Virus record (IMG/VR): IMGVR_UViG_3300013308_000019
Location: 1-64,000 of that record
Source: a virus
Lineage: Duplodnaviria > Caudoviricetes
Direction: 5' to 3' (one strand)
DNA length: 64,000 bases
Position 1 is the stretch's first letter; each line of letters starts with the position of its first letter. This document shows, in pieces, positions 3,929 through 63,248 of this stretch. Both the position numbers and the translations under genes were made by a program. The notes below the pieces were generated by a model that saw only the letters and a list, made by a program, of their open reading frames with translations, had not been told where the DNA came from and searched no databases.

Positions 3929-4149
3929 TGGACAGCAGTCTGCGCAAGCGCCTCAGGAAGGCCGCTGAAGACCTCTATATCCACCGGAGGACCCGAAGTG
4001 ACATCGCCAACGCAGAGGCCCGTCTAGCGGCCATACAGAGCGCGTGGCTGGATGCGGGTCCTGTGCCCGACTACCACGAACACATGAAAAACAAACTGCG
4101 CCGTGACTGGCCGACACTTGCAGGTGCATTGGACGAAGCTACCAAGTAG
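3925..4149 (+). CDS. Hypothetical protein
   Basis: ORF coupled to the upstream stop. Confidence 0.6.
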   Translation: MMDSSLRKRLRKAAEDLYIHRRTRSDIANAEARLAAIQSAWLDAGPVPDYHEHMKNKLRRDWPTLAGALDEATK

Positions 4150-4859: not shown

Positions 4860-5285
4860 ATGAACAACGACGAATTTCACCTAATCAGCGAGGTCTCACT
4901 GGCAGGCCTGCCATACAACTCCGAGATCATCTTCCGGGATGGGAAATCGTACCGCAAGGAGTTCTCTCCCGAAGACCTCGAATGGCGGGAACTCGGTGAC
5001 GGCTGGAACAGCCGCACCTATAAGGCAAGCGCTCGGCTCGCTTCTGAATACTCCGAGGCCCAAATCTGGCCCCATGACCACAAAAACCCGCAACACAAGT
5101 TTGTCACAGGTGACCGGCTTGACCATATCGAAGCTGAATCGAAGAGGCTGTCGGAGCAAGCAGTACAGATGCTTGAGGTGGCAACAACACAGGATGAACT
5201 CCTGAAAGCAAAAGTCTACGTCGAACGCGCACGAGGAATGCTCGCGACACTCCGGATGATCCGGGGATACCACGAAGGGAATTAA
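4860..5285 (+). CDS. Hypothetical protein (leaderless)
   Basis: ATG at predicted +1. Confidence 0.7.
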   Translation: MNNDEFHLISEVSLAGLPYNSEIIFRDGKSYRKEFSPEDLEWRELGDGWNSRTYKASARLASEYSEAQIWPHDHKNPQHKFVTGDRLDHIEAESKRLSEQAVQMLEVATTQDELLKAKVYVERARGMLATLRMIRGYHEGN

Positions 5286-15885: not shown

Positions 15886-16275
15886 GTGGAAATGTCTAAG
15901 TTCAAGGTAGGTCAAGAGGTGATCTTCAGCCATGGGGATTTGGAGGATGTGAAGGGTGTGATACTTAATCCTCACTTCCAGATCAGTCAGTCGGACTGGC
16001 CCGAGGTCGTCGTCCAGTACGGTGACGACCGGCGTTTCTTTGTGGACATCGACAAGGTGCGTCCTGCGGAGGACCCGTACGAGTACAACATCGAACGGAC
16101 CTCCGGGATCACAGGTCGGACCAGCATGTGCTTTGGCATGGATGGCTGGGATGATGACCGCGAGGCTGTCGAGGGGGATTTTAAGGACTACCTCGAAGGG
16201 GATGGGGCAACCATGCTGGGAGCTAAATTCAGGATGGTCAAGCGAAGGAAGGCGGGGCCGGTAGAAGATGTCTAA
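15886..16275 (+). CDS. SH3-like plus YEYNIE...KRRKAG module protein
   Basis: FKVGQEV; YEYNIE; KRRKAG. Confidence 0.7.
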   Translation: MEMSKFKVGQEVIFSHGDLEDVKGVILNPHFQISQSDWPEVVVQYGDDRRFFVDIDKVRPAEDPYEYNIERTSGITGRTSMCFGMDGWDDDREAVEGDFKDYLEGDGATMLGAKFRMVKRRKAGPVEDV

Positions 16276-16690
16276 GTTTATCAAGGGTGACATTGTGGAT
16301 GCACAGTGGCTGGGTGGGACGACCACACGCGGCATGGTCCACGAGTCGTGGGGCAGTCACATCAGCAGGAGAACGGGCCTTCCGATGACGGAAATCTTCT
16401 TGTTCGATCAGGGGTTCGTTGGGAGCTTCGATGAGGATGAGGTAGAGTTGGCTCTGGATGAGTACGAGTTCATGGCTGTCTACGTTGACCAAGAGGACTT
16501 CGATCAGGCCGCTATTGGGGTTGACGAATGGGGCACGCTGGAGTACGCTGAGAGTATGATCCAGAGGGCCAAGGAGCAGGAAGAAGACCCTGAGTGGAAG
16601 GAAGCTAAACAGCTTCAAATCAACCGACGCAGAAAGGCAGGGCACACAGTTGGACACGAAGCATTCCGTTGGGATATTCAGGGACGGTGA
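16268..16690 (+). CDS. SH3-like plus ...RRRKAG module protein
   Basis: FIKGDIV; EYEF; RRRKAG. Confidence 0.65.
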   Translation: MSKFIKGDIVDAQWLGGTTTRGMVHESWGSHISRRTGLPMTEIFLFDQGFVGSFDEDEVELALDEYEFMAVYVDQEDFDQAAIGVDEWGTLEYAESMIQRAKEQEEDPEWKEAKQLQINRRRKAGHTVGHEAFRWDIQGR

Positions 16691-47981: not shown

Positions 47982-48042
47982 TTACAAAACACGCATAGCG
48001 GCCCTAGTTGACACTGGGGCCGCAGGTGTGTATACTAGAAGT

Positions 48043-48124
48043 AGATGGTAAGCCATTGATATCGGCCCTGTAGCGGGGTCGGGGGAAAGAGCCATCCTAA
48101 ACGCGTTTCGGCCTTTTATTTTTT
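48043..48124 (+). ncRNA. Candidate small RNA, family 2, copy 1
   Basis: TTGACA-17-TATACT promoter, no credible protein ORF, hairpins, U-tract; paralog at 50357..50428. Confidence 0.55.
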
Positions 48125-48170
48125 GGGTCCTCTGGTTTCCCTGCCCCGCGTCTTTGCGGCTCCGCTTCAT
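48125..48170 (-). ncRNA. Candidate small RNA/minigene, family 1, copy A (core)
   Basis: ATGAAGC...GCAGGGAAACCAGAGGACCC. Confidence 0.5.
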
Positions 48171-48325
48171 AGCTTCATTCTTTCACAATTTCGATGCGGA
48201 TGCAAGTCTACAAGAAACGCGTTACAAGAAACGCATTGCGGTTAGAGTTTGCATCCGGTGGCCGTATGCCGTAGAGTAGAGCTATCGGGAACGACCGGTT
48301 CCCCCGAAGCCTTGGAGGTCTCATC

Positions 48326-48949
48326 ATGGGCGCACCCCGTATCGGTAACGTGCTGGACGTTCCGACTAAGCGTGTATATGCCGCTAACCCTAACTCGGCC
48401 CGTATCGTGGACGTGTGGCGGCAGGCTACCGTTTCCGAATTGGTAGAGGGTATGGAGTGGTACCGTGACGCTCACGCGCTCGCCGTGGAACTCTCCCCTA
48501 CTGATCCGGCGCAGGCCGCTGGCGTTATCGCCGCGCTGTCTCCCCTTATGTCATGGGGTCAGAATGTGGTGCTGGCAGTCCGCGCATATGCGGACGGTAA
48601 AGCATCCGGTGCACTCTTTAGCAACGTTGCTAAAGCCAACCGTATCCTCGCCGGTGAGCGTCCGGAGGATGTACTGGGCGGCGATAAAGTACGGGCGTTC
48701 TACGGTGCTATTGCTGATCCGGCATCGGATGCGGTTGTCGTTGACCGGCACGCGTTCGACATTGCCGTTGGCCGCGTGACTAACAACGAGTCGCGGCAGG
48801 CACTGGGCCGTAAGGGTGTGTACGATTCGTTCGCACGGGCCTACGTACGGGCCGCTAAGGCCATTTCAGCAGAGACTGGCATGGATGTATCGGCCAGTCA
48901 GGTACAGGCCGTTACGTGGACGGTATGGCGTAGGCTCAAGGGTCTGTAG
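48326..48949 (+). CDS. Conserved phage protein, HhH-GPD DNA-glycosylase-like
   Basis: WY..A...IAALSP..SW..N...G.KVRAFY...VVVDRHA...QAVTW. Confidence 0.55.
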   Translation: MGAPRIGNVLDVPTKRVYAANPNSARIVDVWRQATVSELVEGMEWYRDAHALAVELSPTDPAQAAGVIAALSPLMSWGQNVVLAVRAYADGKASGALFSNVAKANRILAGERPEDVLGGDKVRAFYGAIADPASDAVVVDRHAFDIAVGRVTNNESRQALGRKGVYDSFARAYVRAAKAISAETGMDVSASQVQAVTWTVWRRLKGL

Positions 48950-49044
48950 TTACAAGAAACGCATAGGCGGCAGGACTAGACACCCTGCCGCTTATGCCAT
49001 AGACTTTATTCATCGGAACAATCCGAACCACTTAGGAGGCCAAC

Positions 49045-49404
49045 ATGGCAAGCATCGCAGAAACTCTTCTTACCCGCACGGCACGCGACGGCGGCGTTAC
49101 TGTCTCACTCGTTAGCGGCGACGTGGCCGCGCACACGTCGGGGTTCTACGTCGGCGGACGCGTCAAGGAAACCATCGTTTCCGACCCGTCAAGCATCGGG
49201 GACTACCTGACTGCCGTCTCCACCATCACCCGCCGTGCCGGTGGCGTAGGCTACGTGGGAGCGTGGAAGAACCACGAGACCGGTCTGGTCCACGTGGATG
49301 CATCGGATCACGTGGAGGACTTCGGGACCGCCGTACGGATCGCGCAGGAACGCGGCGAACTGGCGATTTGGGAGATCGCGGGCGGAACTGAATTCCGCCT
49401 CTAG
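49045..49404 (+). CDS. Conserved phage protein; paralog of 58435..58869
   Basis: GG.T..L...HT.GFYVGG...G.W...G.V..DAS...ELAIW. Confidence 0.7.
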   Translation: MASIAETLLTRTARDGGVTVSLVSGDVAAHTSGFYVGGRVKETIVSDPSSIGDYLTAVSTITRRAGGVGYVGAWKNHETGLVHVDASDHVEDFGTAVRIAQERGELAIWEIAGGTEFRL

Positions 49405-49493
49405 TTACAAAAACCGCATAGCGTCTAGGACTTGCGTCTTAGGCGCTATGCGGGTAAGCTAGTCATATCAGCCAAACCAAACAGGAGGACAAA

Positions 49494-49787
49494 ATGCCGC
49501 TCATGTCAGTCAAGCTCAAGAATCGCATTCTCAAGGCCGACCCCACGTTGGAGGTCCACCTGCGGAACATCCGGGTCAATGCGGACCCTCGCGGATGCTC
49601 TGGATTCATCGTCAACCCTGCCAATGGCAAGGTCGTGTACGTAGACACTGAGGAAAGTGTCTACGGGCCGCTACGGGGCAAGATTCTGTACCGGACGGCG
49701 GAACACACCAAGGACTTTACCGGTGGCGTCAACCGGTGGGCAACGGATGAAACGCTCGTTGCGGACGTGCTGCAACTGCTCAAGTAG
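49494..49787 (+). CDS. Conserved phage hypothetical protein
   Basis: RGCSGFI...VYV.TE...YRTA...KDFTGG.N. Confidence 0.75.
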   Translation: MPLMSVKLKNRILKADPTLEVHLRNIRVNADPRGCSGFIVNPANGKVVYVDTEESVYGPLRGKILYRTAEHTKDFTGGVNRWATDETLVADVLQLLK

Positions 49788-49872
49788 TTACAAAAAACGC
49801 TTACGGGATGGGACTTGCACAATGCGGTCCCATCCCCTAGAATTGAAGTATCAGCCAAACAGGAGGAACAAA

Positions 49873-50001
49873 ATGGATCGCGAAACTCGGGCCGAAATCA
49901 TCTGCAACCTTGCAGGCAAGGACCCCAACAACGAGGCCGACTGGGCGGAGGCTTTGAAAGAAGCTGACCAGCAGATCGCAGACGGGTTTGAATACCAGTA
50001 G
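49873..50001 (+). CDS. Small cassette protein (42 aa)
   Basis: AGGAGG RBS; stop abuts motif. Confidence 0.65.
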   Translation: MDRETRAEIICNLAGKDPNNEADWAEALKEADQQIADGFEYQ

Positions 50002-50092
50002 TTACAAAAAACGCTTAGCGGATGGGGTTGCATCTAGCGGCCCCATCCGGTAGACTCTTACTATCAGCCAAACAACGGGAGAGGAACCCAAA

Positions 50093-50302
50093 ATGGACTG
50101 GATCACTGTAACACCGGCTTACGGACGCGACTACCGCAACAAGACGGAGGCGCTCGCAGACTGGGATGCGGACAAGGACTTTCGGGAGACGGCGTCCAGC
50201 AAGTACATCAACAAGTCGCAGGCCGAACGGATGGGACTCAAGGTCATCATCCGGTACGGGAAGGGCATGAAGAATCTGGACACCACGGCGAAACGCCGGT
50301 AG
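50093..50302 (+). CDS. Conserved phage hypothetical protein
   Basis: PAYGRDY...ADW...KDF...YINK. Confidence 0.75.
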   Translation: MDWITVTPAYGRDYRNKTEALADWDADKDFRETASSKYINKSQAERMGLKVIIRYGKGMKNLDTTAKRR

Positions 50303-50311
50303 AACTTACAA

Positions 50312-50346
50312 GAAACGCTTAGCCGAAAGGCTAGGCGTTTTTTGTT
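50312..50346 (+). terminator. Intrinsic terminator built onto a motif copy
   Basis: AAACGCTTAGCC-GAAA-GGCTAGGCGTTT followed by a T-tract. Confidence 0.75.
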
Positions 50347-50356
50347 GTTGCGGCCT

Positions 50357-50428
50357 AAAAAATAAGGCCAGACTCGGCCTTCCCCGCCACCCGTCTCAGG
50401 GCGGCTATCATGTTCGCCTTGCGGCTAT
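50357..50428 (-). ncRNA. Candidate small RNA, family 2, copy 2
   Basis: TTGCAT-17-TAAGCT promoter on the minus strand; TGATA-hairpin-GGGGAAG; terminator and U-tract. Confidence 0.55.
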
Positions 50429-50545
50429 AAAATAAGCTTACCACCTTGCGGATGCAGATGCAAGTCTACAAGAAACGCATTGGGACTTGCGGATGCGCTC
50501 GCATGCGTGTACGTTTAGGGTAACGGATCAACGAAAGGGAAGATC

Positions 50546-50827
50546 ATGTCGGACTACACGAAGTTCCAGATGTACAGCTACGGGACGCACAACCTTGTGG
50601 AGACGTGGCAGACCTACGGACACAACGCGGCCATTCTGGCGGACGTGGAGTATCGGGACGGTATGTGCACCGTGACTGTGTACGACCCCACAACATCCCG
50701 TTGCCGTACGTACGACAACCGGCCTACCGTGGCCGCTCTCGGTATCGTAGAGCGTCACCTAGAGCGCATGGGTTACAAAAACTGCGTAGAGGTTCGGGAC
50801 TTGACGGCTGAGACCTCGGAGGACTAA
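50546..50827 (+). CDS. Hypothetical cassette protein
   Basis: RBS and ORF. Confidence 0.65.
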   Translation: MSDYTKFQMYSYGTHNLVETWQTYGHNAAILADVEYRDGMCTVTVYDPTTSRCRTYDNRPTVAALGIVERHLERMGYKNCVEVRDLTAETSED

Positions 50828-50860
50828 GCTTAGGTATCGGAACAACCTAGGAGGCGGACC

Positions 50861-51175
50861 ATGGCACGCAAACCACGCGCTAGTGAAGTAGCTACAAGAA
50901 ACGCATTCTTGGACTACTTGGAGTCACTGGAGACTCGGGCGACGGAGGACATTTGCGGAGTCTGGTATAACCGTCTGGGAGCCTCTAAGCATGCGGCAGG
51001 GGAATTGTGCCAGTGGGATATGTTCAGCCGCCCATGGCACCTTGTAGCGCGTTACGCGTCTGAAGAGCTTACGGAGTGGTTCGCTCGCAATGGCCGGATG
51101 ACGTTTACCGAGTGGCGCGAATCGGAACGCGAATACCTGCGGGAACAGTTTGACATGTACGCACAGAGCGCGTAA
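50861..51175 (+). CDS. Conserved actinophage hypothetical protein
   Basis: RYASEEL.EWF...GRMTF.EW. Confidence 0.7.
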   Translation: MARKPRASEVATRNAFLDYLESLETRATEDICGVWYNRLGASKHAAGELCQWDMFSRPWHLVARYASEELTEWFARNGRMTFTEWRESEREYLREQFDMYAQSA

Positions 51176-51216
51176 GCTCTAGGTATCAGCCAAACCAACC
51201 AGTCAAGGAGACTAAA

Positions 51217-51615
51217 ATGGCAAAGACTTTCAAGCTCACCAACCAGCGGGCAAACGAACTGCTGGCAGACATCCGGCAGGTATCCGCGCAGGAAGGTGAC
51301 TGGCGGGCAACGCTGGACAATCTCGAAGAGACGTTCGAAGCGTTCGCGGAGATGACGGCGGAACCGGAGCGTGTGATCTTCCGGAAGTTCACCCATGACG
51401 GCGCAATCATCGCCCTGCTCCCTGACCAGTACAACGAGCGGAACGGCAACATCGGGAGCTACATGGAGTTGGGACAGCACGCGGAGACGGCTCCCGATTT
51501 CGGAGACACCAAACCGGCAGACGCACCGGAGTACCGGAACCTCTACAACGAGTTGGTACGGCAGGGTTACCACAACCTGAAGGTGGTCAAGCGTTTCGGG
51601 AAGCTTGGCCGGTAG
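51217..51615 (+). CDS. Conserved phage hypothetical protein
   Basis: VIFRKF...IALLP...SYM..GQH. Confidence 0.7.
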   Translation: MAKTFKLTNQRANELLADIRQVSAQEGDWRATLDNLEETFEAFAEMTAEPERVIFRKFTHDGAIIALLPDQYNERNGNIGSYMELGQHAETAPDFGDTKPADAPEYRNLYNELVRQGYHNLKVVKRFGKLGR

Positions 51616-51707
51616 TTACAAGAAACGCATACGGGACCGGAGTTGCTTAGGTGGCTCCGGTCCTGTAGTCTTTAGGTATCAGTTCATCAACGGCACAGGA
51701 GGCCACC

Positions 51708-52178
51708 GTGGTATACATGCTCACCATCAAAGACTTGGAAACCCGTCCGGAGGGTACGTACTACACAGGACCGCTGGAAGAGGCTAAGGCCTTTATCGCG
51801 GACTGGATCAACTCCACTGAGGCCCGATACCTCGACACCACCGGTAAAGTCCGGTACGCGGTCTACCTGACCTTGGAAGTCGGAGACGGCAAACCTGCCA
51901 GCATGGACAACTGCAACGACATTGGGGTCGGAGACACCAGCGAAGAGGCTTGGCGGTACGCTCTGGGCGCAGAGTTTGGACCTGCCGACGACGAGTTTAG
52001 CGCGTTCCCGCTGACACACGACAAGCGGGAGGCTGTAGAGGCTATGGTGGCGCACCACTTCCCGGAGCGTCTGGACGCGTTCTACTCGCCCACAACAGGC
52101 CTTGCGGCAGTCGAGGACACGGATGGGAACATGTGGCGCGTGTGGCCGGATGGGGACATTGAGGTCTACCGCCGATAG
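51708..52178 (+). CDS. Two-module cassette protein
   Basis: C-terminus paralogous to 38543..38932. Confidence 0.7.
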   Translation: MVYMLTIKDLETRPEGTYYTGPLEEAKAFIADWINSTEARYLDTTGKVRYAVYLTLEVGDGKPASMDNCNDIGVGDTSEEAWRYALGAEFGPADDEFSAFPLTHDKREAVEAMVAHHFPERLDAFYSPTTGLAAVEDTDGNMWRVWPDGDIEVYRR

Positions 52179-52272
52179 GTTACAAGAAACGCGTAGCGGG
52201 TAGGATTTGCGTCTTACCCGCTATGCGTGTATTCTTTAGGTACAAGGTAAGAACAACGGCTAGGAGGCCACC

Positions 52273-52518
52273 ATGAACAAGGCAAAAGCGGAGAAGGTAC
52301 TGGCAGAGGTTGAAGAGCAGTTCAAGCTCTACATCGAAGCAGGGTACCCGAAGCCGAACCTGCGGGATGCGGACCATGAGCAACTGCCCAAGGGTTCGTG
52401 GTCCATCGACTGGGAAGATGGTCCGGACGAATGGTGCTACGCAATGCCAGCGTCGAAGATTCCCGGCGTTTTCGTGGAGCCGATCATGTCGTTTGTTCTC
52501 GGAGTCTACGACGACTGA
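52273..52518 (+). CDS. Hypothetical cassette protein
   Basis: WEDGP.EW...VFVEP. Confidence 0.7.
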   Translation: MNKAKAEKVLAEVEEQFKLYIEAGYPKPNLRDADHEQLPKGSWSIDWEDGPDEWCYAMPASKIPGVFVEPIMSFVLGVYDD

Positions 52519-52622
52519 GTTACAAGAAACGCTTAGCGGGTACGGGTTGGACAACAGCCCGTACCTGCTGTAGTCTTTACTTATCGGTTCAACCGGAACC
52601 GCCGAAAGCCTAGGAGGCTATC

Positions 52623-52835
52623 ATGCTTGAAGCTCGCACCCTCTCCCGTTCCCCGCTCAACTTCCTCCCCAACGACTCGGTAAGCATCGAGGGCATGTTG
52701 GTACGTGTGGACCGCGTAGAGGCCCTTACGGCGAATCTGGTACGCGTTGAGGGGAACGTCATGAGCTTCCCCGTCTCAATGGTACTGGGCGCTACTCAGA
52801 TCATGAAGGTAACCCGCATGGTCCACATGCTGTAG
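52623..52835 (+). CDS. Hypothetical cassette protein
   Basis: AGGAGG RBS. Confidence 0.7.
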   Translation: MLEARTLSRSPLNFLPNDSVSIEGMLVRVDRVEALTANLVRVEGNVMSFPVSMVLGATQIMKVTRMVHML

Positions 52836-52931
52836 GTTACAAGAAACGCGTAGGCCGGTGGACTTGTGTCCATCGGCCATAGCGGGTAGGATCATGGTAT
52901 AAGGTAGAACCAACCTACAAAAGGAGGAATC

Positions 52932-53102
52932 GTGGACAAGTTCAAGCTCGGTTACATCGTTGGCAAGCGTTACCGCGTGTGGACGGGAGACGTGGACTTG
53001 GTCCTCGGCTACCGTGATGATGGATGGGTCATCGTCCAAGACGAGAAGACTGGCGTAATTCGTACGCACATCACCACGTGTTCAAGCACTCCGCTCGACT
53101 AG
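52932..53102 (+). CDS. Small cassette protein
   Basis: AGGAGG RBS and GTG start; stop abuts motif. Confidence 0.65.
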   Translation: MDKFKLGYIVGKRYRVWTGDVDLVLGYRDDGWVIVQDEKTGVIRTHITTCSSTPLD

Positions 53103-53193
53103 CTACAAGAAACGCTTAGCCGGTAGGACTTGCGCCTACCGGCTGAGGCGTGTAGTCTTGAGGTATCAAGTCAACCACTCCAAAGGAGACACA

Positions 53194-53364
53194 GTGAACT
53201 TCGAAGTCGGAACCAAAGTCGAAATCCTCGAACGCGGCGCATGGGTAGGCCCGTTCACCGTTACGGCAGACGCGGGACGCACGCCGGATCACGTAGTGCT
53301 TTACGGTCCCTCTGGCCGGTTCGAAGTCTACAACGACGCACCGTTCAACATCCGTAAAGCTTAG
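53194..53364 (+). CDS. SH3-like cassette protein
   Basis: FEVGTKV. Confidence 0.65.
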   Translation: MNFEVGTKVEILERGAWVGPFTVTADAGRTPDHVVLYGPSGRFEVYNDAPFNIRKA

Positions 53365-53465
53365 TTACAAAAACCGCTTAGGGAGTCGGACTTGCATCCG
53401 GCTCCCATAGCGGGTAAGCTTTAGGTAATGGAGCAACCGGCTCCCCAAAGTCCTAGGAGGACACA

Positions 53466-53744
53466 ATGACTGGTGAAGAGTACTTGGAAGAATCGGGCGA
53501 CTTTGAGGACGCCGTGCAGGATTTGCCGCTGGCCGGTGGCATAGTCGGACGCCAGATTGTGGCGTACTTCGAAAACCTCGACGGACGCGTGGCAGTACAT
53601 GCCGAGTCCATCGACCACGTTGGAGAGGGCCAGCACGACTACCGGATCACCTTTGAGGGTGGACAGGTTCAGGCCTACCGCGTGACGTTCTCCAGCACCA
53701 ACATCTTCATTTCCACCATCGTGGACGCAACGCCGCTCAACTAG
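53466..53744 (+). CDS. Hypothetical cassette protein
   Basis: RBS; stop abuts motif. Confidence 0.7.
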   Translation: MTGEEYLEESGDFEDAVQDLPLAGGIVGRQIVAYFENLDGRVAVHAESIDHVGEGQHDYRITFEGGQVQAYRVTFSSTNIFISTIVDATPLN

Positions 53745-53840
53745 TTACAAAAACCGCTTAGCGGTTAGGGTTGACACTCTAGCCGCTAAGCCGGTAGACT
53801 CACTACATCGGAACAATCCGGAAACCAAAAGGAGAAAGTC

Positions 53841-54128
53841 ATGAAGTCGGTAATCACCAAGCTGGAAGTCTCGGAACGTCTGCTGGGCGTGGAGAAGTAC
53901 GAACTGGAGATCAAGGGCAAGAAGGCTCACGGGACCATCGTGGAACTCCACACGGACATTGACAGCGGCCAGCGCCACGTGTTCGTCCTGACGCCGGTAG
54001 ACGGCGGTCTGTCGCCCTCCACGGCGGATGCAGTAGCTCGACGCCTCATCGACGGCGCTCGCAAGTTCTCGGGCAACCACGTCGGCCCGAACAGCGTGGT
54101 ACGCGTCGGACGCTACGCGGCCAGCTAG
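53841..54128 (+). CDS. Hypothetical cassette protein
   Basis: RBS; stop abuts motif. Confidence 0.7.
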   Translation: MKSVITKLEVSERLLGVEKYELEIKGKKAHGTIVELHTDIDSGQRHVFVLTPVDGGLSPSTADAVARRLIDGARKFSGNHVGPNSVVRVGRYAAS

Positions 54129-54225
54129 TTACAAAACACGCATAGAGCCTCGGACTTGTGTCTGAGGCTCTTAGCGTGTAAGCTTTAAGTATCGGAACAA
54201 TCCGACAGAGACAAAGGGGTAGGAC

Positions 54226-54483
54226 ATGAACAACACTCTCATCCACAACATCGTGGATATGACGCGATTCGCGGTTAGCTCTGTGAATTTCTCGCAGGTC
54301 TACGCGTTCGACAACGGTACCAAGATGGCCGTGTCGCGTAACGCCATGACAGGCGGGCACAAGGCCGGTTACATGGCCGTCCTGCCTTACGACAAGGCCG
54401 GTAATCAGGTAGATGATCGGGCGGAGGCGTGGCTCTCAGCGGAGGACGTGGCTATCAAGATGGAAGTCCTCGCCAGCGAGTAG
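54226..54483 (+). CDS. Hypothetical cassette protein
   Basis: Y.F.NG...SV.....GG...G...AVL pattern. Confidence 0.7.
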   Translation: MNNTLIHNIVDMTRFAVSSVNFSQVYAFDNGTKMAVSRNAMTGGHKAGYMAVLPYDKAGNQVDDRAEAWLSAEDVAIKMEVLASE

Positions 54484-54568
54484 TTACAAGAAACGCGTAG
54501 GGCCTAAGTTGACTTCGGTTAGCTTAGGCCTTATGCTTGTAGTACACACCAACCGAAAGAAGGACACC

Positions 54569-54775
54569 ATGGCGCGCAACTCCACTCCCGCCACTCGTGC
54601 CGAGGCTCGCGACAAGGCCGAGGTAATCGGCGCGGCTGAGCGCGTGATCTACGCGGAAATCAACGACTTTGTGTTGCGGGTAGGCAAGCACAAGGCTACG
54701 CCGTTCCTCGCGGTACTGGGCGGGTTCGCCTACATCATCTTTGGTCACGAGCTTGTGAACTCCATAAACCTGTGA
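54569..54775 (+). CDS. Small membrane-anchored protein
   Basis: C-terminal hydrophobic segment. Confidence 0.6.
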   Translation: MARNSTPATRAEARDKAEVIGAAERVIYAEINDFVLRVGKHKATPFLAVLGGFAYIIFGHELVNSINL

Positions 54776-54787
54776 TACAATGAACTC

Positions 54788-54863
54788 ACAGACATAAAAT
54801 GAAGCCTCTGGGGATGACCACCAAATCTCCCCGGAGGCTTCGCCAATTGTGGGAGAGGTTGGC
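54788..54863 (+). ncRNA. Candidate structured small RNA
   Basis: TTGTGA-17-TACAAT; long hairpin GAAGCCTCTGGGGA/TCCCCGGAGGCTTC plus GCCAA/TTGGC. Confidence 0.4.
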
Positions 54864-54923
54864 TTACAAAAAACGCGTAGCGGATAGGTTTGCATTCCGG
54901 CGCAAAGGTGGTAAGCTTAGAAC

Positions 54924-55020
54924 ATGGAAAGGGAGGTTAGGAGCCTCCACCCGCCAGACTAAGAATCTGGGGGTCCGGGAAGTTCCCACCCACTGGGAAC
55001 CGTCAGCCCCACGCACGGGG
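54924..55020 (+). ncRNA. Candidate four-hairpin small RNA occupying a whole cassette
   Basis: Lies between motif copies 54864 and 55021, has its own promoter, only a 12-codon ORF and four hairpins. Confidence 0.6.
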
Positions 55021-55119
55021 TTACAAAACCCGCTTAGCGGATGGAGTAGACAGGCCGGTTGAAAGCTGGTAGTCTTATTCCATAAGCAGTTCACAACTCC
55101 ACAGAGAAAAGAGCAGACC

Positions 55120-55326
55120 ATGAAGGTTTTCTTCGAAGCACTGGTCGATGGACAGTACGTCAACCAGAAGCGTCTGGCGGATATCCCGGATGAGAAAGCT
55201 TACGCTCGGGCGGCTAAGGCCTACCCGAATGATCCGGACTACGTGGAGCAGATGCTCGACGGACGCGGCTACATCTACATCAACGGCCACAACTGCCGGT
55301 TCACCTACCAACAGGACAGCCTCTAG
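55120..55326 (+). CDS. Hypothetical cassette protein
   Basis: Stop abuts motif. Confidence 0.7.
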   Translation: MKVFFEALVDGQYVNQKRLADIPDEKAYARAAKAYPNDPDYVEQMLDGRGYIYINGHNCRFTYQQDSL

Positions 55327-55429
55327 TTACAAGACACGCATAGGGCCTCTACGGAGGCCCTATTTGCGTTTGGGCGGAAAGGTGGTATCGTTGAGGTATC
55401 GGCAAGGGTTGCCGGTAGGAAAGGGAGTC

Positions 55430-55750
55430 ATGGAACTCAACGTCAAGTACAGCACCGCGAATCTGGAAGCAACCAAGGGTAGCGCGGACGCCTCACCCGG
55501 TGACCGCAACGCGGCACCCTACCTGCTGAAGCTGGACACCGTGGAGCGGCGTCTGCGGGCTGTAGGCGAGGCCCACACGCTCATGAACCTGCTGGGCTTC
55601 CGGTACTCTGAGGCTGTCTACAACGCCGTATCGGACCTGAGTAAGAACATTGCCGCTGGGCAGGAGGATAAGGCCCTCTACGGCGAGGCTATCGCTAAGC
55701 GGTACCGCGACGAAGAGAACGCACGCCGGAAGCTGGAACGCGGGTACTGA
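55430..55750 (+). CDS. Hypothetical protein, last gene of the plus arm
   Basis: GGGAG RBS; followed by motif and terminator. Confidence 0.7.
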   Translation: MELNVKYSTANLEATKGSADASPGDRNAAPYLLKLDTVERRLRAVGEAHTLMNLLGFRYSEAVYNAVSDLSKNIAAGQEDKALYGEAIAKRYRDEENARRKLERGY

Positions 55751-55763
55751 TACAAAAAACTCT

Positions 55764-55800
55764 TAGGCTCTCATCCTCCGGGATGGGAGCCTATTGTTTT
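55764..55800 (+). terminator. Terminator closing the plus arm
   Basis: TAGGCTCTCATCC-TCCG-GGATGGGAGCCTA followed by TTGTTTT. Confidence 0.75.
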
Positions 55801-55970
55801 GTGTCTGGGCGGGGCTGTGTGGGCCTCTACGGGGCTGTGAGGGATTGGGTGGCACTCTCACCCATGGCGGCGATTCTAGGGCCTTAGGCGGGCACGTAGG
55901 GCCTGCGGTAGGCCTGCGTAGCTGTGAGGCTCTGGGCGGCTGTCTGCGGGCCTAACTGGGCGCAGACGCA

Positions 55971-56001
55971 CAAAGACCCCCAACCTTTCGGTTGAGGGCC
56001 T
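55971..56001 (-). terminator. Terminator closing the minus arm
   Basis: Minus strand AGGCCCTCAACC-GAAA-GGTTGGGGGTCT-TTG. Confidence 0.7.
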
Positions 56002-56020
56002 CTGTGGGGCTGTGGAGGGC

Positions 56021-56287
56021 CTAGGCTTCGATGTCCTCGGGGCTGATGTCCATCACGTAGGCTTTGATGTTGACCTCGTCATCTGACTGGCCTGAGCGGT
56101 CCCAAGGGTTGATGCAGGGAACGTCTGCGGCTTCGATTTCCACCTGAAGGGAGCCGTCCGGGTTGGTGGCCGCGATATCGGTTACGGTCATCTCTTCGCC
56201 AGCTTCGAGGACTGCCGTCCATCCGCTGGAAAGGTTGATTTCAATGCGCCGGTTGAGCTTGATGGTCTGGCCGATTTCGATGAACAT
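56021..56287 (-). CDS. SH3-like hypothetical protein
   Basis: RBS GAAAGGG; IEIGQTIKL. Confidence 0.65.
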   Translation of the reverse strand: MFIEIGQTIKLNRRIEINLSSGWTAVLEAGEEMTVTDIAATNPDGSLQVEIEAADVPCINPWDRSGQSDDEVNIKAYVMDISPEDIEA

Positions 56288-56388
56288 GGTTCCCTTTCGT
56301 GGCCGGTGTTTCCGGCTCATGTAATGAGCTTACCGGACAAACAGAAAACGCGCAACCCCGAAGGGTTACGCGTTTTTTGTAAGTGGGG

Positions 56389-56589
56389 CTAGTCCTCATC
56401 CCAGACTTCGCCCGCGTAGTCGTCCTGTTCGGACGAGTTGCAGACTGGGCACTGATCCGTGCAGGAGGCCCAAGAGTAGATGTAGTACCACGAGCCGTCG
56501 AACTTGGAGCGGGTGGGGGAGACGATGCGCTGGTGGCCAGCGGCGTCGGTGTAGACCTTGTCGCCGGGGTATTCTGCGAAGGTTGACAT
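56389..56589 (-). CDS. Small Cys-containing cassette protein
   Basis: AAGGAG RBS; CTDQCPVC. Confidence 0.65.
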   Translation of the reverse strand: MSTFAEYPGDKVYTDAAGHQRIVSPTRSKFDGSWYYIYSWASCTDQCPVCNSSEQDDYAGEVWDED

Positions 56590-56698
56590 TGTTTTCTCCT
56601 TGTTTGGTTTGACCTTGTACCTACAGCTTAGCATGGTTTCGCGGGGCTTGTCTACTCGGGAGGCTGTGCGTTTTTTGTAAGGGTCCTAATTATTTTAG

Positions 56699-56732
56699 GG
56701 GTCCTCTGGTTTCCCAGCCATGTCCGCTTCAT
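56699..56732 (-). ncRNA. Candidate small RNA/minigene, family 1, copy B (core)
   Basis: TTGACA-17-TAGACT-6-ATGAAGC...GCTGGGAAACCAGAGGACCC. Confidence 0.55.
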
Positions 56733-56828
56733 GGTTTGAGTCTACGGGGTTTGAGGGTGAGTGTCAAGCCTGCGGCAGACACAAGAGAGAGGGGAGCCTC
56801 TCGGCTCCCCTCTAAGCGTTTCTTGTAG

Positions 56829-57002
56829 TTACCAGCGGTCCATCATGAAGGTGTGTCCGCCGAATCCTTGGATGACTCCGCAGATGACCATGACGATGGT
56901 TGCCACCACCAGCCCGCCCATGAAGGCCCATCCGATGATGCAAAAGAGAATCCAAGATGCGATATCGAGGAAACCTTTGATTCCGGTGTATGAAGACTTC
57001 AT
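56829..57002 (-). CDS. Small membrane protein
   Basis: MKSSYTG...hydrophobic...MMDRW; stop abuts motif. Confidence 0.6.
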   Translation of the reverse strand: MKSSYTGIKGFLDIASWILFCIIGWAFMGGLVVATIVMVICGVIQGFGGHTFMMDRW

Positions 57003-57103
57003 GGCCTGCTCCTAAGTTTGTATCGGCTTGTTCCGATGTATAGAGCTTAGCATAGGCTCCGAGTAGTTGTCTACCCGAAGCCTATGCGTTTTTTGTAGCT
57101 GTG

Positions 57104-57346
57104 CTAGCGGTCAAGCGGCACGCGCTCCAGCGAGCCAGTGCCGAAGTAGTCCACGTTGAGCAGGTACTCAGAGCCGTTCCAGCGAGCGCGTGCGCCGCTC
57201 CTGTAGCCATTGTCGAGCATGTGATCTGCGATAGCCTCGCTAGAGGCGTTCTCGATGGCGTAGGCCTTGCCACGGACCACGTAGCGGCTTCCAGCGGCTC
57301 CCCGTACCGTGCGCTGAGTCTGGTTCTTCTTGATGGTCTTTCCCAT
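57104..57346 (-). CDS. Hypothetical cassette protein
   Basis: AAGGAG RBS. Confidence 0.65.
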   Translation of the reverse strand: MGKTIKKNQTQRTVRGAAGSRYVVRGKAYAIENASSEAIADHMLDNGYRSGARARWNGSEYLLNVDYFGTGSLERVPLDR

Positions 57347-57435
57347 TGTCTTACTCCTTGTGTGCGTTTTTTGTATTGGAATTGCCATTAGTGGCATGCC
57401 CTACTAGGTAGCGTACCACCTAGTAGAGCAAACTG

Positions 57436-57702
57436 CTAATCGCGGGCTTCGTCGTCCGAGACTTGGAACATCCACGAATCGGTGTAGATGTTCCGGCGAA
57501 CTGTGATCTTGCCCTGAGCTACCAGCGATTCGAACGCCTCGCGGTAGTTCTTGAGGTTCGCGGGAGTCTCGCGGATGTTGTGCCACGCGAGCGTGCTTTC
57601 GACGGTACGCTCCACCATGATGTCCCGGTGAGTGGTGTGGGAGTCGTAGAATCCGTCGTTCCACTCGTTGATGTAGGTGAGGATGTTGTCTTCGCGGCTC
57701 AT
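57436..57702 (-). CDS. Hypothetical cassette protein (possible winged helix)
   Basis: REAFESLVAQGKI.VRR. Confidence 0.65.
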   Translation of the reverse strand: MSREDNILTYINEWNDGFYDSHTTHRDIMVERTVESTLAWHNIRETPANLKNYREAFESLVAQGKITVRRNIYTDSWMFQVSDDEARD

Positions 57703-57798
57703 GTCTTGCTCCTTGGCTTGTCTCGGCTTGTTCCGATATGGATAGCTTACGCTAGTCGGGAGAGTTATGCAACCCTCCCGACTAAGCGTTTTTTGTAG

Positions 57799-57990
57799 CT
57801 AGTCTTCGAGGTCTTCGATCTCTTCCACCTCTGCGGCTTGGAAACCATGCTCGTCTTCGAGTTCTTCGAGAGTGGTGTACCAGAACCCGCCGACCCCATC
57901 CGGAGTGATGAAGTACATGTCATCCTTGCGGACGTAGTACGCGGTATCGACGGTGAGTTCGGAACGGGGAGTGAGGGTTGCCTGTGCCAT
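57799..57990 (-). CDS. Acidic cassette protein
   Basis: Stop abuts motif. Confidence 0.7.
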   Translation of the reverse strand: MAQATLTPRSELTVDTAYYVRKDDMYFITPDGVGGFWYTTLEELEDEHGFQAAEVEEIEDLED

Positions 57991-58085
57991 TTTCTTTTCC
58001 TTTGTTTGGAGCGGCTTTGCTTATGTGTCTAGCTTAGCCTAGGTGGGAGAGTATTGCAACCCTCCCACCTAAGCGTGTTTTGTAA

Positions 58086-58340
58086 CTACGCTTTACCGTA
58101 GTGCCCACCGTCTGGCAGGTCACCACAGCAGGGGAAGAAGTGGATAGGCCACGCCTCATCCTCGCCACCCTCTGCGATGAAATCGGCGTTGTAGTCGAGC
58201 CACAGATCACGCTTGCTGTCGAAGTCGTCATCGAACCAGTCGTGACCCTTCTTGGCTTTGGGAACGTCTGCACAGTCTGCGCGGTGAACGCTCACGTCGT
58301 AGTCGTTGTTCCCATTGCCGTTGATGGTTACCAGTTTCAT
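58086..58340 (-). CDS. Conserved actinophage hypothetical protein
   Basis: VHRADCAD...FFPC. Confidence 0.7.
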   Translation of the reverse strand: MKLVTINGNGNNDYDVSVHRADCADVPKAKKGHDWFDDDFDSKRDLWLDYNADFIAEGGEDEAWPIHFFPCCGDLPDGGHYGKA

Positions 58341-58434
58341 GATGACTCCTTAGGTCTATCGGCTTGTTCCGATATGAATAGCTTACACGCAAAAGGCCCG
58401 AGAACCAAATCTCGGGCCTATGCGTTTTTTGTAG

Positions 58435-58869
58435 CTAGTTGACGTAGATGCTCACCTTGTTGGCAACATCCCAGACGGCCAGTTCCTCGCGCTCCTTAGC
58501 TACGAGCATTGCCGTCTCGTAGTCCTCGTACCACTCGGAGGCTTCAGCGTAGACAACACCGGACTCTACCCACGTGCCCATCAGCCCGAGGCCTTCAGTG
58601 GTCGCGTAAGCCATTCCCAGTGCGTACTGGTAGTCTCGGGTATCCGAGGCCTTCAGGTCGAACATGTGGGGCTTGTGGAGGCCTGCCACGTAGTAGCCGG
58701 TGGTGTGCGAGGCCATGGCCATGGTGGGGCTGGAAAGGTCGAGAGTGCATCCACCGTTGGCGGACGTCTCACGTGAGAGGGTGACGCCGCGAATCTGACC
58801 ATAGGTCCGGAGCTTCGGCGTGACGCCGGAGTTTTCGTTGCGCATGGTCTCTACTGTCTGAGCGGACAT
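58435..58869 (-). CDS. Paralog of 49045..49404
   Basis: GGCTLDL...HTTGYYVAG...GTW...EAS...ELAVWD. Confidence 0.7.
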   Translation of the reverse strand: MSAQTVETMRNENSGVTPKLRTYGQIRGVTLSRETSANGGCTLDLSSPTMAMASHTTGYYVAGLHKPHMFDLKASDTRDYQYALGMAYATTEGLGLMGTWVESGVVYAEASEWYEDYETAMLVAKEREELAVWDVANKVSIYVN

Positions 58870-59002
58870 TGGTTCCTCCTGAGTGGATCGGATGGTTTGA
58901 TATGAAGAGCATACCACTACTTTTGCGGATGATGCAAACTGCGCGGATGACGTGCGTTTTTTGTAAGTTGCGCGTGAGCGCGGATGCGTGTAAGCTGAGA
59001 GT

Positions 59003-59040
59003 ATGAAGCAACCGATTGAAGCTGGGTCACCGGAGGACCC
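59003..59040 (+). ncRNA. Candidate small RNA/minigene, family 1, copy D (core)
   Basis: TTGCGC-17-TAAGCT-6-ATGAAGC...GCTGGGTCACCGGAGGACCC. Confidence 0.5.
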
Positions 59041-59147
59041 ACAAAATAAGTGGGTCGGAAAGTAGGCATCACTCCATTCTCTCATAGTTTTTGGGTGGTT
59101 GTCAAGTGGGCTGAGGGCAAAAGAAAAGGCCCTTTCGGGCCTTCCCT

Positions 59148-59459
59148 TTAGAGTACTTCGTACTTGCCATTCGGCTGGCGGTACTTGATGTACGTGCAAC
59201 CGGCGTCGTACTGCGCCCATTCCAGCGGCTGGAATGCATCCTCGCTGTCCGCGTCACCGTAGAAGTAGCCGGTGAAGTAGCAGTTGTCGTCGTCGTCGTA
59301 GAGCTTGAAGTGGGTACCCTTACCGGCCTTGCCGTCGCGGATGCTGGCACGCTCTGCGTTGCTGGTGCCGTACACGCGGGGAGTTTCCAGCTTTTCCAGC
59401 TTTTCACCGAAGTTGGGGTTGCTGTCTTCGATTGCCGAGTGAGTGATCGTGAAACCCAT
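59148..59459 (-). CDS. Conserved phage hypothetical protein
   Basis: F.LYDDD...YF.G...PL.W...DAGCT.I.Y. Confidence 0.75.
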   Translation of the reverse strand: MGFTITHSAIEDSNPNFGEKLEKLETPRVYGTSNAERASIRDGKAGKGTHFKLYDDDDNCYFTGYFYGDADSEDAFQPLEWAQYDAGCTYIKYRQPNGKYEVL

Positions 59460-59579
59460 TGTGACTCCTAAGTCCGTTTCTCAAGCTCCCTGCTTGATGA
59501 CTCAAGCCTATCATCTATTCGGCAGATTGCAAACCCCAATTTCGCAATGCGTTTTTTGTAACCGGCCTGAAAGTAAAAG

Positions 59580-59613
59580 GGGTCCTCTGGTTTCCCTGCC
59601 TCCGGAGCTTCAT
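59580..59613 (-). ncRNA. Candidate small RNA/minigene, family 1, copy C (core)
   Basis: TTGCTT-17-TACCAT-6-ATGAAGC...GCAGGGAAACCAGAGGACCC. Confidence 0.55.
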
Positions 59614-59693
59614 AGTTCCATGGTACCGGCTTTGCCGGTGGGAAGCAAGTCCCTGAGGACAAAAGAATAGGACCCCTTTCGGGGTCCTATTCT

Positions 59694-60818: not shown

Positions 60819-61267
60819 TGTGTCTCCCTTGTGAATGACTGACTACGTCTATCCTCTCATGTGTTTGTCTCATGTGTCAACTTGAAATGCTCATGAGTTT
60901 ATACTGTGTTCAAACGCGCACGCCCGCACGCGCACGTGATTGTCCTCTAGTATTTTATTTTTGTCAAGCCATTTGGCGATGCGTTTTTTGTAGGCTCGCG
61001 TGGTCAATGCGTTTTTTGTAACGCGCTTGGGTGTGGGTTGTGTGGGATACGCGAAGCGTTTTTTGTAGTGTGGTTTGTGTGGGTTGTTGGGATGCGTTTT
61101 TTGTAAGGTGTAGGTTGTGTAGGTTGTATTGCTTTGTTTGATGCGGCATGATACAATCCTTGCGGATGCGGCTGTTTTTTGGAAACTTTTGGGGGTGGGG
61201 TCGCTGTACATACGGCTACCTGCTACTAAAAATAGGAAAAAATTACACTAATATACACAGTTAAGTG

Positions 61268-62510: not shown

Positions 62511-63248
62511 TCATACGTTCACCCAGTTAACGAGGTCAACCTCAGAGAACCTCGGAGCAGGTTCCACAACCCACTTCTTGCGCGTGAACTCTACCGTCTC
62601 TTCCACGCCGTTCTTCCGCGTAAAGGAGGTTTTTCCGTAGGCCAGTTTACGCCGAATTAAGGAACCCTCCCTCACCCACGGAGCGACATGATGGTAGTTC
62701 ACCCCGATCTCATCCAGCTTCCTGATCCGACCGTACGTACTCACCCCGTCCAGAGACTTGTGCGAGAAGTGGTGCGAGGCCAGCATGCTCACGCTGTTCT
62801 TGATCGCATCCCCCTGCCGCCAGTCGAGGTACCCCTCAACCAGACCCAGATCGGACAGGTGGTGGACTCGGGCATCGAACAGAGCCACATCCCCCTTAGG
62901 CCGCAGAGAGTTGAACTTCGCAGTCGCCATGGCCGCAGTGATCGAGACGATCTTCTGAGTCTGACCGCCGAACCACCAGTCCGTGTTCTCGCCAGCCAAG
63001 TCCGAAAACACCACGGAGATTTCATCCGACTGGGTGTACCCCAGCACAGCCCCGTCGATGTTCTCACACAGGTACTGTGCAGTCTCCTGCATATGGAACG
63101 TGAAGTCCGCGTCGAACGGTTTCTTCAGCTTCTTGGTGTACTTGGAGAAGCCCTTTCCGTCCACGCGCACAACAGCGTAGCTCTTCTTGGGGAGGTACAA
63201 TCGGTACTCCTTCTCCAAATCCTTCATTACGGTATTCTCGCCGTTCAT
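62511..63248 (-). CDS. thg1: tRNA(His) guanylyltransferase Thg1-like protein
   Basis: RVDGKGFS, KPFD, GYTQSDEIS, WFGG..QK, FDAR, WRQ.DA.KNS. Confidence 0.93.
   Translation of the reverse strand: MNGENTVMKDLEKEYRLYLPKKSYAVVRVDGKGFSKYTKKLKKPFDADFTFHMQETAQYLCENIDGAVLGYTQSDEISVVFSDLAGENTDWWFGGQTQKIVSITAAMATAKFNSLRPKGDVALFDARVHHLSDLGLVEGYLDWRQGDAIKNSVSMLASHHFSHKSLDGVSTYGRIRKLDEIGVNYHHVAPWVREGSLIRRKLAYGKTSFTRKNGVEETVEFTRKKWVVEPAPRFSEVDLVNWVNV

Follow-up and report, generated by a model that had tools for sequence, protein, structure and literature searches.

A 64,000-nt stretch of phage DNA, referred to here as the window, carries between positions 48125 and 59613 four copies of a short element that opens with AUGAAGC just downstream of a promoter. 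The locus raises the question of what is being maintained: an RNA, a peptide or a DNA site? The window is part of a 95,273-bp virus record (IMGVR_UViG_3300013308_000019; CheckV completeness ~55%), and a sequence-only reading of it had described a dispersed family of tiny promoter-driven transcripts that are probably selected as RNA. Here, we describe these elements, which we call units, as members of a phage-specific family of tiny early-promoter cassettes conserved in large Arthrobacter-type phages. The explanation that we favor, and to which we give roughly even credence, is an early regulatory module that would work at the RNA level, as a leader or as an antisense transcript.

A phage family of promoter-anchored units

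The degenerate 17-mer GGGWMACCRGAGGACCC, searched with ≤2 mismatches, has exactly four matches in the window, where 0.07 are expected and four were reached in 0 of 100 shuffles. The complete record contains the same four matches and no others. These correspond to units A to D, and both their positions and their strands agree with the sequence-only reading. The units and their predicted promoters are as follows.

48125..48170, minus strand: unit A (type A), AUGAAGC plus a 19-nt insert (CCGC/GCGG hairpin) plus core GCAGGGAAACCAGAGGACCC; antisense to the local plus-strand genes
48177..48205, minus strand: unit A promoter, TTGCAT-17-AAGAAT, weak -10; conserved in the close relative G004
56699..56732, minus strand: unit B (type B, insert GGACATG); codirectional with the local genes
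56739..56767, minus strand: unit B promoter, TTGACA-17-TAGACT; 10/12 in the consensus scan
59580..59613, minus strand: unit C (type C, insert TCCGGAG); codirectional with the local genes and upstream of a 103-aa gene
59620..59648, minus strand: unit C promoter, TTGCTT-17-TACCAT; G004 has another promoter at the same position
59003..59040, plus strand: unit D (type D, insert AACCGATTGAA); antisense to the local minus-strand genes, with a hairpin GACCCAC/GUGGGUC after the core
58968..58996, plus strand: unit D promoter, TTGCGC-17-TAAGCT; its -35 abuts a reversed module motif at 58954-58966

In all four units, six nucleotides separate the -10 hexamer from the ATG, and the spacing of -35, 17 bp, -10 and start could be read as originally described, including the weak -10 of unit A. 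The stretch GGGAAACCAGAGGACCC is identical in units A, B and C, and unit D differs from it at three positions and places it in another reading frame. A tract rich in A or U had also been described after each core; it is present, A-rich in units A, B and D and U-rich in unit C.

We scanned viral, metagenome and phage collections and filtered out chance matches, which yielded 52 distinct units in 29 related phage loci, on contigs with proteins 30-88% identical to those of the window. The proposal of a dispersed, promoter-driven and phage-specific family is therefore borne out. The promoter was not part of any search pattern used to collect the family, and the end of the -10 hexamer lies exactly 6 nt from the ATG in 51/51 units. 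The spacer between -35 and -10 measures 17 nt in 44 units and 18 nt in seven, and the -35 averages 4.5/6 matches; these features are consistent with promoters of the host sigma-A/sigma-70 type. A relaxed core pattern run over 255 kb of related DNA found 54 cores with AUGAAGC upstream and four without it, all of the latter chance-like.

Each unit consists of AUGAAGC, an insert that is either linear (6-11 nt) or a hairpin (16-22 nt), a 20-nt purine-rich box of the form GCWGGG..ACC.GAGG..CC, and a tail of ~17 nt. The 6-22-nt insert between AUGAAGC and the box defines five types, and each insert is identical across distant phages: TCCGGAG in 10 units, AACCGATTGAA in eight, GGACRTG in 10, CCACCA or CCACGGGA, and the hairpin inserts. 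Together, the comparisons show a family that is anchored at the transcription start, constrained in its nucleotides, defined in its architecture and arranged in two orientations.

No near-identical phage record or cultured phage was found for this record. Its portal protein is 56% identical to those of Racecar, Mimi and Talia1610, which are 194-kb phages of Arthrobacter globiformis, and the top matches of a neighboring DUF7178 protein are to Streptomyces, Mycobacterium and Gordonia phages, pointing to an actinobacterium as the probable host. The cultured Arthrobacter phage Racecar has one unit at 16,574 and, near 10.6 kb, an A-type unit paired with a second kind of small RNA (F-type, see below); both are duplicated in its ~20.5-kb terminal repeat, and the same elements are present in the cultured Arthrobacter phage Mimi, where the ATGAAGC of the unit lies at 15,982. 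A sequence model of the family counted four units in this record, four plus one weak in a 99%-complete relative, two in a complete relative and three in a 91%-complete relative, and one 13.8-kb contig carries eight. Within a genome, the units cluster within ~13 kb. Three other phages gave no match to the model (R1): Atuin, which infects Arthrobacter, and the Microbacterium phages Cece and A3Wally.

Nucleotide constraint, translation and RNA structure

The sequence-only reading had attributed the conservation to selection on RNA, while keeping leaderless micro-peptides in view. If the units were leaderless micro-protein genes, each type would encode an active peptide of its own. Types C and B, for example, would give the basic MKLRRQGNQRTP.. 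or MKRTWLGNQRTPKI.., type D would give MKQPIEAGSPEDP.. and type E the 13-aa MKPTSRETRGPTK. This idea draws on the AUG, which stands exactly at +1 in 54/54 units, on one reading frame that is common to 34/52 units, and on a stop after 13 codons that three type-E units share. However, the same conserved nucleotides are read in three frames, the core lying in the three frames relative to the AUG at a ratio of 34:13:5. Even corresponding units switch frame: slot B of G004 is filled by a type-E unit whose frame differs from that of the type-B unit in the window, and orthologous units of the related loci L006 and L008 also differ in frame. One unit (L019) has a TAG inside the core, another (L059_6285) stops after eight codons, and the open reading frames (ORFs) of the units range from 8 to >53 codons with no conserved stop. 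Substitutions within types fall evenly on the three codon positions (12:11:12), without an excess at the third, and the ratio of synonymous to non-synonymous changes is 7:18; the excess of synonymous changes that would have spoken for a peptide was thus not seen among homologs. Two type-A orthologs, read by eye, show ~12 replacements versus two silent changes, synonymous sites are frozen between phages with proteins only 30-60% identical, and neither the F-type partners nor the A-type unit of Racecar has an AUG. The three frames, frame switches, early stops and even codon positions lead us to reject a conserved peptide as the main explanation, and we regard the micro-protein alternative as unlikely, though not negligible.

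The nucleotides themselves are well preserved. Mean pairwise identity is 0.88-0.96 over the unit, a value that is partly forced by the search patterns, compared to 0.35-0.42 over the promoter spacer and 0.45-0.52 over the tail. In slot C, positions +1 to +35 are identical in the window and in G004 and the next module is also kept, although the two have entirely different promoters there; this argues for selection at the nucleotide level. These results suggest that selection acts on the RNA sequence of the first ~35-45 nt and not on a peptide.

Nucleotide-level selection is compatible with translation of the units. The record contains 31 non-unit sites with the same geometry (TTGNNN-17/18-TANNNT-6 nt-ATG, or GTG), and 27 of these open ORFs of 59-302 aa, including three with lipoprotein-like signal peptides; leaderless expression thus appears to be the main mode in this phage. 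Examples of such sites in the window are found at 4860, 9969, 15377, 35963, 36985, 38994, 41247 and 43512. [quoted passage not shown] Given the 27 ORF starts of identical geometry, this 5' AUG rule and the Arthrobacter-type relatives, translation of the units is likely, and they are probably, in formal terms, leaderless mini-cistrons. The micro-peptide caveat thus carries more weight than the sequence-only reading gave it, in that translation is likely, even though the peptides are unconserved.

That the AUGAAGC strand acts as RNA is best supported by the inserts. Each of the 12 distinct long inserts is predicted to form a hairpin of 4-5 bp at a constant offset, and the stems have five different sequences, including CCGC/GCGG, GCCG/CGGC, GUCCC/GGGAC and ACGCC/GGCGU. 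Two of these hairpins use G-U pairs, which are mismatches on the other strand, where the hairpins are much weaker. Folds of the single units A, B and C are unremarkable, and the box is probably presented single-stranded. Several other structures were tried and rejected. The stems GGGUC/GACCC, GCAGG/CCUGC and GGCA/UGCC and a CCC/GGG tail hairpin showed no consistent covariation; a preQ1-I-like aptamer of the "hairpin plus A-tail" kind was dismissed, its features being unconserved and no model matching; and Shine-Dalgarno mimicry by GGAGGA/AGAGGA is lost in variants such as ACCGAACCTGCC.

A DNA-level element offers another way to account for the conservation. The unit would then be a site for a protein roadblock or regulator, or a transcription-activated origin in which a G-rich RNA followed by an A-tract primes from an R-loop, with face-to-face pairs as bidirectional starts. 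Such a role would suit a core that lacks a conserved RNA fold and whose complementary strand folds at least as well, units that form imperfect palindromes with inward-facing promoters, a type-C insert CTCCGGAG that is a perfect palindrome, and the clustering within ~13 kb. It does not explain why the box is confined to the transcribed strand with a spacing from the promoter that varies (6-22 nt), why it never occurs without promoter and AUGAAGC, or why the insert hairpins covary and use G-U pairs. Up to eight units in 13.8 kb of one contig would also be odd for origins, and no replication genes adjoin. We consider a DNA-level element improbable.

The core also contains a potential slippery heptamer, G_GGA_AAC, in units A, B and C (minus strand, 48134-48140, 56708-56714 and 59589-59595). 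Followed by a spacer and a small hairpin, it could direct a -1 frameshift, or the unit could act as a translation-gated attenuator in which U-tract variants terminate unless a ribosome follows closely behind. GGGAAAC is in the correct frame in units A, B and C and in most type-C units, and a U-run comes directly after the box in the type-C units of the window and of L017, L059, L106, L040 and L088. Many units of the same type carry the non-slippery GGGTCAC or GGGACAC instead, however, and the heptamer is out of frame in types D and E. In addition, the downstream hairpin is weak and unconserved, and most units have an A-run rather than a U-run. We therefore rejected programmed frameshifting, and the heptamer, because it is not conserved in the family, is probably incidental; this whole alternative is the one to which we attach the least weight, and we hold it to be highly improbable.

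Setting of the units in the module array

Small genes form an array that extends from 35 to 61 kb, and the units occupy gene slots within it in either orientation. The array is punctuated by a 13-nt motif, TTACAARAAACGC, which has 62 matches (≤2 mismatches) in the record, ~60 of them in two gene arrays. In the arrays, all but three are oriented in gene direction; in the window, the motif reads on the plus strand up to 55.8 kb and on the minus strand from 56.4 kb. It directly follows the stop codon of most small genes (array at window positions 35355-61106), and most copies are followed by a promoter, with the -35 ~13 nt away and in many cases within an inverted repeat, ahead of a TANNNT -10. 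Read in reverse, TTACAARAAACGC supplies a U-run after the hairpin of the inverted repeat, and the modules may therefore terminate antisense transcripts. Related phages carry different cargo in the same slot. The features around the four units are the following.

48208-48220: reversed module motif, abutting the -35 of the unit A promoter
48008..48036, plus strand: promoter opposing unit A, TTGACA-17-TATACT; 11/12 consensus matches
48043..48124, plus strand: F-type small RNA F1, with a 5' hairpin, a central G-U hairpin, a weak stem and a U-rich run; overlapped by the unit A transcript
50356..50428, minus strand: F-type small RNA F2, with three hairpins and a canonical terminator; minimum free energy -29.3 kcal/mol, z -2.3
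50435-50463, minus strand: F2 promoter, TTGCAT-17-TAAGCT; abuts a reversed module motif
56788..56813, minus strand: intrinsic terminator of the upstream gene, just before the unit B promoter; 11-bp stem plus T-run
56668..56680, minus strand: module motif TTACAAAAAACGC, 18 nt past the unit B core, with no terminator between
59549..59561, minus strand: module motif TTACAAAAAACGC, 18 nt past the unit C core, followed by the gene's own promoter and the conserved 5' untranslated region (5'UTR) AUCAAGCAGGGAGCUUGAG
59148..59459, minus strand: 103-aa gene, phrog_12268, function unknown; unit C upstream (sense) and unit D downstream (convergent)
59126..59143: hairpin AAGGCCC-TTTC-GGGCCTT between the 103-aa gene and unit D, read from the sequence
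59076..59105, minus strand: promoter opposing unit D, TTGACA-18-GAGAAT, TG-extended; 10/12; reads through the unit D complement into the next gene

Units B and C have no terminator ahead of the promoter module of the next gene, and we therefore propose that each adds a further 5' leader to an early mRNA that is also served by a promoter of its own. The next module motif likewise follows the core in 16 other units, giving 18/52 in all, mostly at +16 to +19 nt. The description of the units as small RNAs or tiny transcripts consequently stands as far as their own promoters are concerned, but B and C would run on into the next promoter module and gene.

Units A and D are predicted to be inverted antisense cassettes, with transcripts that converge on an opposing promoter-driven RNA. 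Each faces, on the other strand, a promoter that is stronger than its own and that had gone unnoticed in the sequence-only reading. The convergent partner is the F-type small RNA in the case of A and the leader of the next gene in the case of D. An antisense role, as had been suggested for the family, is thus plausible for A and D but not for B and C. The transcript of unit A would run into a reversed module hairpin and U-run at ~47985. In unit D and at least eight other inverted units, a gene terminator lies 22-26 nt past the core with its reverse side toward the unit. For unit D, this is the hairpin at 59126-59143, which is predicted to terminate the 103-aa gene and at which the unit D RNA may also end, although a fold prediction pairs part of that stretch differently from AAGGCCC-TTTC-GGGCCTT. 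At least five units face another unit within ~105 bp, and four were detected facing an F-type RNA. In the face-to-face pairs ~105 bp apart in L006-L008, L079 and L082, AUGAAGC starts lie on both strands and the locus is an imperfect palindrome.

A small gene bracketed by a type-C unit reading toward it from upstream and a D- or E-type unit from downstream was found in at least 10 contigs. The bracketed gene encodes the 103-aa protein here, and elsewhere it is another gene with the same 5'UTR. This 5'UTR (59460-59510, minus strand; AUCAAGCAGGGAGCUUGAG..ACUUAGGAGU) is conserved in L010, L017, L024 and Racecar (L040), even before a different coding sequence. AUCAAGCAGGGAGCUUGAG starts like a unit with AUC in place of AUG and forms a UCAAGC/GCUUGA hairpin.

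F-type RNAs are characterized by a covarying 5' hairpin, a central G-U hairpin (..GCCCUG.AGCGGGGUCGG..) and a U-rich run or terminator, and seven homologs are present in related phages, of which the L007 copy is solitary and ends in nine U. F1 is 100% conserved over ~45 nt versus G004, and its fold is not more stable than that of shuffled sequence (z +0.12). The pair of A-type and F-type RNAs is covered by the annotations "gene 22" in Racecar and "gene 21" in Mimi.

Additional observations concern the surroundings. At 60981-61106 (minus strand), just upstream of a TTGACA promoter, four module motifs with CA-rich spacers (ACCCACAC..) are packed into 126 bp, and this cluster may be a regulatory hub of the leftward early cluster. 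The 64-kb window consists almost entirely of small genes, its longest ORF being ≤361 codons with the standard code, and relaxing one stop codon gave no clearly longer frames. A homolog of Thg1-like tRNA-His guanylyltransferase is encoded, as are a nicotinamide phosphoribosyltransferase paired with a phosphoribosyl pyrophosphate synthetase-like protein, a DndB-like protein and, adjoining the portal gene, a 2360-aa UvrD-type helicase (this gene set lies at window 62511-63248, minus strand, and at 81.5-83.9 kb and 85.8-94.6 kb of the record).

Proposed role and relation to known systems

The sequence-only reading had also raised decoy and anti-defense functions, and had suggested comparison with Rfam, CRISPR repeats and type III toxin-antitoxin RNAs. 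As decoys, the units would be RNA anti-CRISPRs, type III antitoxin mimics or other sponges, with inserts that match different host systems. Several of their properties are those of such RNAs: they are promoter-driven, short, phage-specific and multi-copy, they lie in the first-entering terminal-repeat early region of Racecar, and type A/A' resembles a "hairpin plus about 10-nt handle ending GGGAAAC". The searches gave this idea no support. Rfam returned no family at gathering score for the window, none at E≤1 for five related loci and chance-level matches only at E≤10 around unit A, where the CRISPR-DR model gave no match of note. We then consider the cellular genomes: exact pattern matches to the degenerate 20-nt core in 185,579 prokaryotic species (one genome each) numbered five, all in coding sequence, none in an array and all attributable to chance, and at this stringency the core is therefore neither a repeat of host genomes nor a mimic of CRISPR repeats. 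No tandem repeats were found, the four copies being dispersed over 11.5 kb, and no neighboring gene encodes a toxin-like domain, so the parallel with type III toxin-antitoxin RNAs fails as well. Moreover, the inserts are identical across distant phages, unlike mimics that track their hosts. A decoy, CRISPR-repeat mimic or antitoxin role is accordingly very unlikely in our estimate.

Our preferred explanation remains an RNA-level early regulatory leader or antisense module, and a number of results weigh against it. RNAalifold found no consensus pairs in 43 core-plus-tail sequences, whose folding energies are close to those of shuffles (z -0.6 to -1.0) and slightly better on the complementary strand. 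The fold of the core is unconserved, and the RNA-structure argument therefore comes only from the insert hairpins. The column conservation of metagenome-derived copies is largely imposed by the search patterns, and the invariant AUG together with the one-frame bias leaves room for translation or a peptide role. Within the phage, complementary targets did not exceed chance-level 10-13-mers (the single complementary 13-mer, at 3982, is inside a coding sequence), and the neighboring proteins belong to no informative Pfam or PHROG family. Finally, transcription starts, 3' ends and translation are all deduced from sequence.

Under this RNA-level explanation, a host-type promoter would produce a transcript that starts exactly at AUGAAGC. 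The host is expected to translate any RNA with a 5' AUG, and ribosome loading at the 5' end of the unit is therefore probably part of the mechanism. On the nascent early RNA, the largely unstructured box would be recognized by a partner, for which the candidates are the ribosome, RNA polymerase and other factors of phage or host. A cassette in sense orientation would tune the neighboring early genes in cis, whereas an inverted cassette would act by convergent transcription or antisense pairing. A more specific and speculative version, which we rate as doubtful, is an "addressed" early RNA module. Here, the AUG with its ribosome and the box would form a scaffold, and about five invariant address inserts (A-E) would direct it to different conserved partners, creating a translation-gated switch between sense and antisense that times the first genes of the terminal repeat.

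The early regions of large phages are packed with small genes of unknown function, and their control is poorly understood. The units represent an apparently non-protein element that is kept as four or five paralogous types across phages with 30-60% identical proteins, and they place an AUG at the transcription start in a host clade where a 5' AUG suffices for translation. They could offer a way into the interplay of small RNAs with leaderless translation and convergent transcription in the control of early phage genes. Racecar and Mimi are cultured BSL-1 phages and carry units, and the element is therefore directly testable. For annotators, the mini-ORFs of the units and Racecar "gene 22" should not be called proteins.

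The element is absent from Rfam and was not found in the phage-related literature that we searched; the setting in which it lies is already known. The placement of the module motif, intergenic and in one orientation, resembles that of the "stoperators" of mycobacteriophage L5. The antitermination RNAs of lambdoid phages, lambda nut boxA/boxB and HK022 put, are short conserved RNA elements located directly downstream of early promoters and repeated at several of them, and they allow RNA polymerase to pass terminators. The units are likewise promoter-proximal and followed by genes and terminators, and many have a small CCC/GGG hairpin with an A-rich loop. Unlike nut and put, they have neither a boxA nor a conserved hairpin, no N-like gene was identified, half are antisense, and an AUG stands at +1.

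Coliphage 186 pR/pL, P22 sar and lambda OOP are face-to-face promoters or cis-antisense RNAs of temperate phages. Comparable arrangements are seen here, with 65-130 bp between convergent promoters and fully overlapping transcripts, in A/F1, in unit D and the opposing leader, and in the pairs of L006-L008, L079 and L082. In contrast to the temperate examples, both partners carry the same conserved 5' module, several pairs occur per genome, and the phage is large, with no lysogeny genes noticed. With RNA anti-CRISPRs, solitary repeat units and type III antitoxins, the units share the character of short, promoter-driven, multi-copy phage RNAs, but they have no matching repeat in the cellular genomes searched, no tandem repeats and no toxin neighbor.

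The modules built on the 13-nt motif resemble the promoter-early stem-loop (PeSL) elements, composite promoter-terminator cassettes of T4-type phages (PMC2839356; PMC4122927). In both cases, a short promoter plus a stem-loop separates many small early genes, and one slot can hold different cargo in related phages. PeSL elements belong to phages of Gram-negative hosts and these modules to phages of actinobacteria; the AUGAAGC units, moreover, are cargo inside the slots rather than cassette borders, and there is no sequence similarity. The leaderless 5' small ORFs of mycobacteria (Shell et al. 2015, PMC4633059) resemble the units in their AUG start, lack of a Shine-Dalgarno sequence, very short length and position at the 5' end of longer transcripts, as with B and C. 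The units differ from them in that their nucleotides are conserved across three frames; they are, moreover, dispersed paralogs that often lie in inverted or convergent arrangement.

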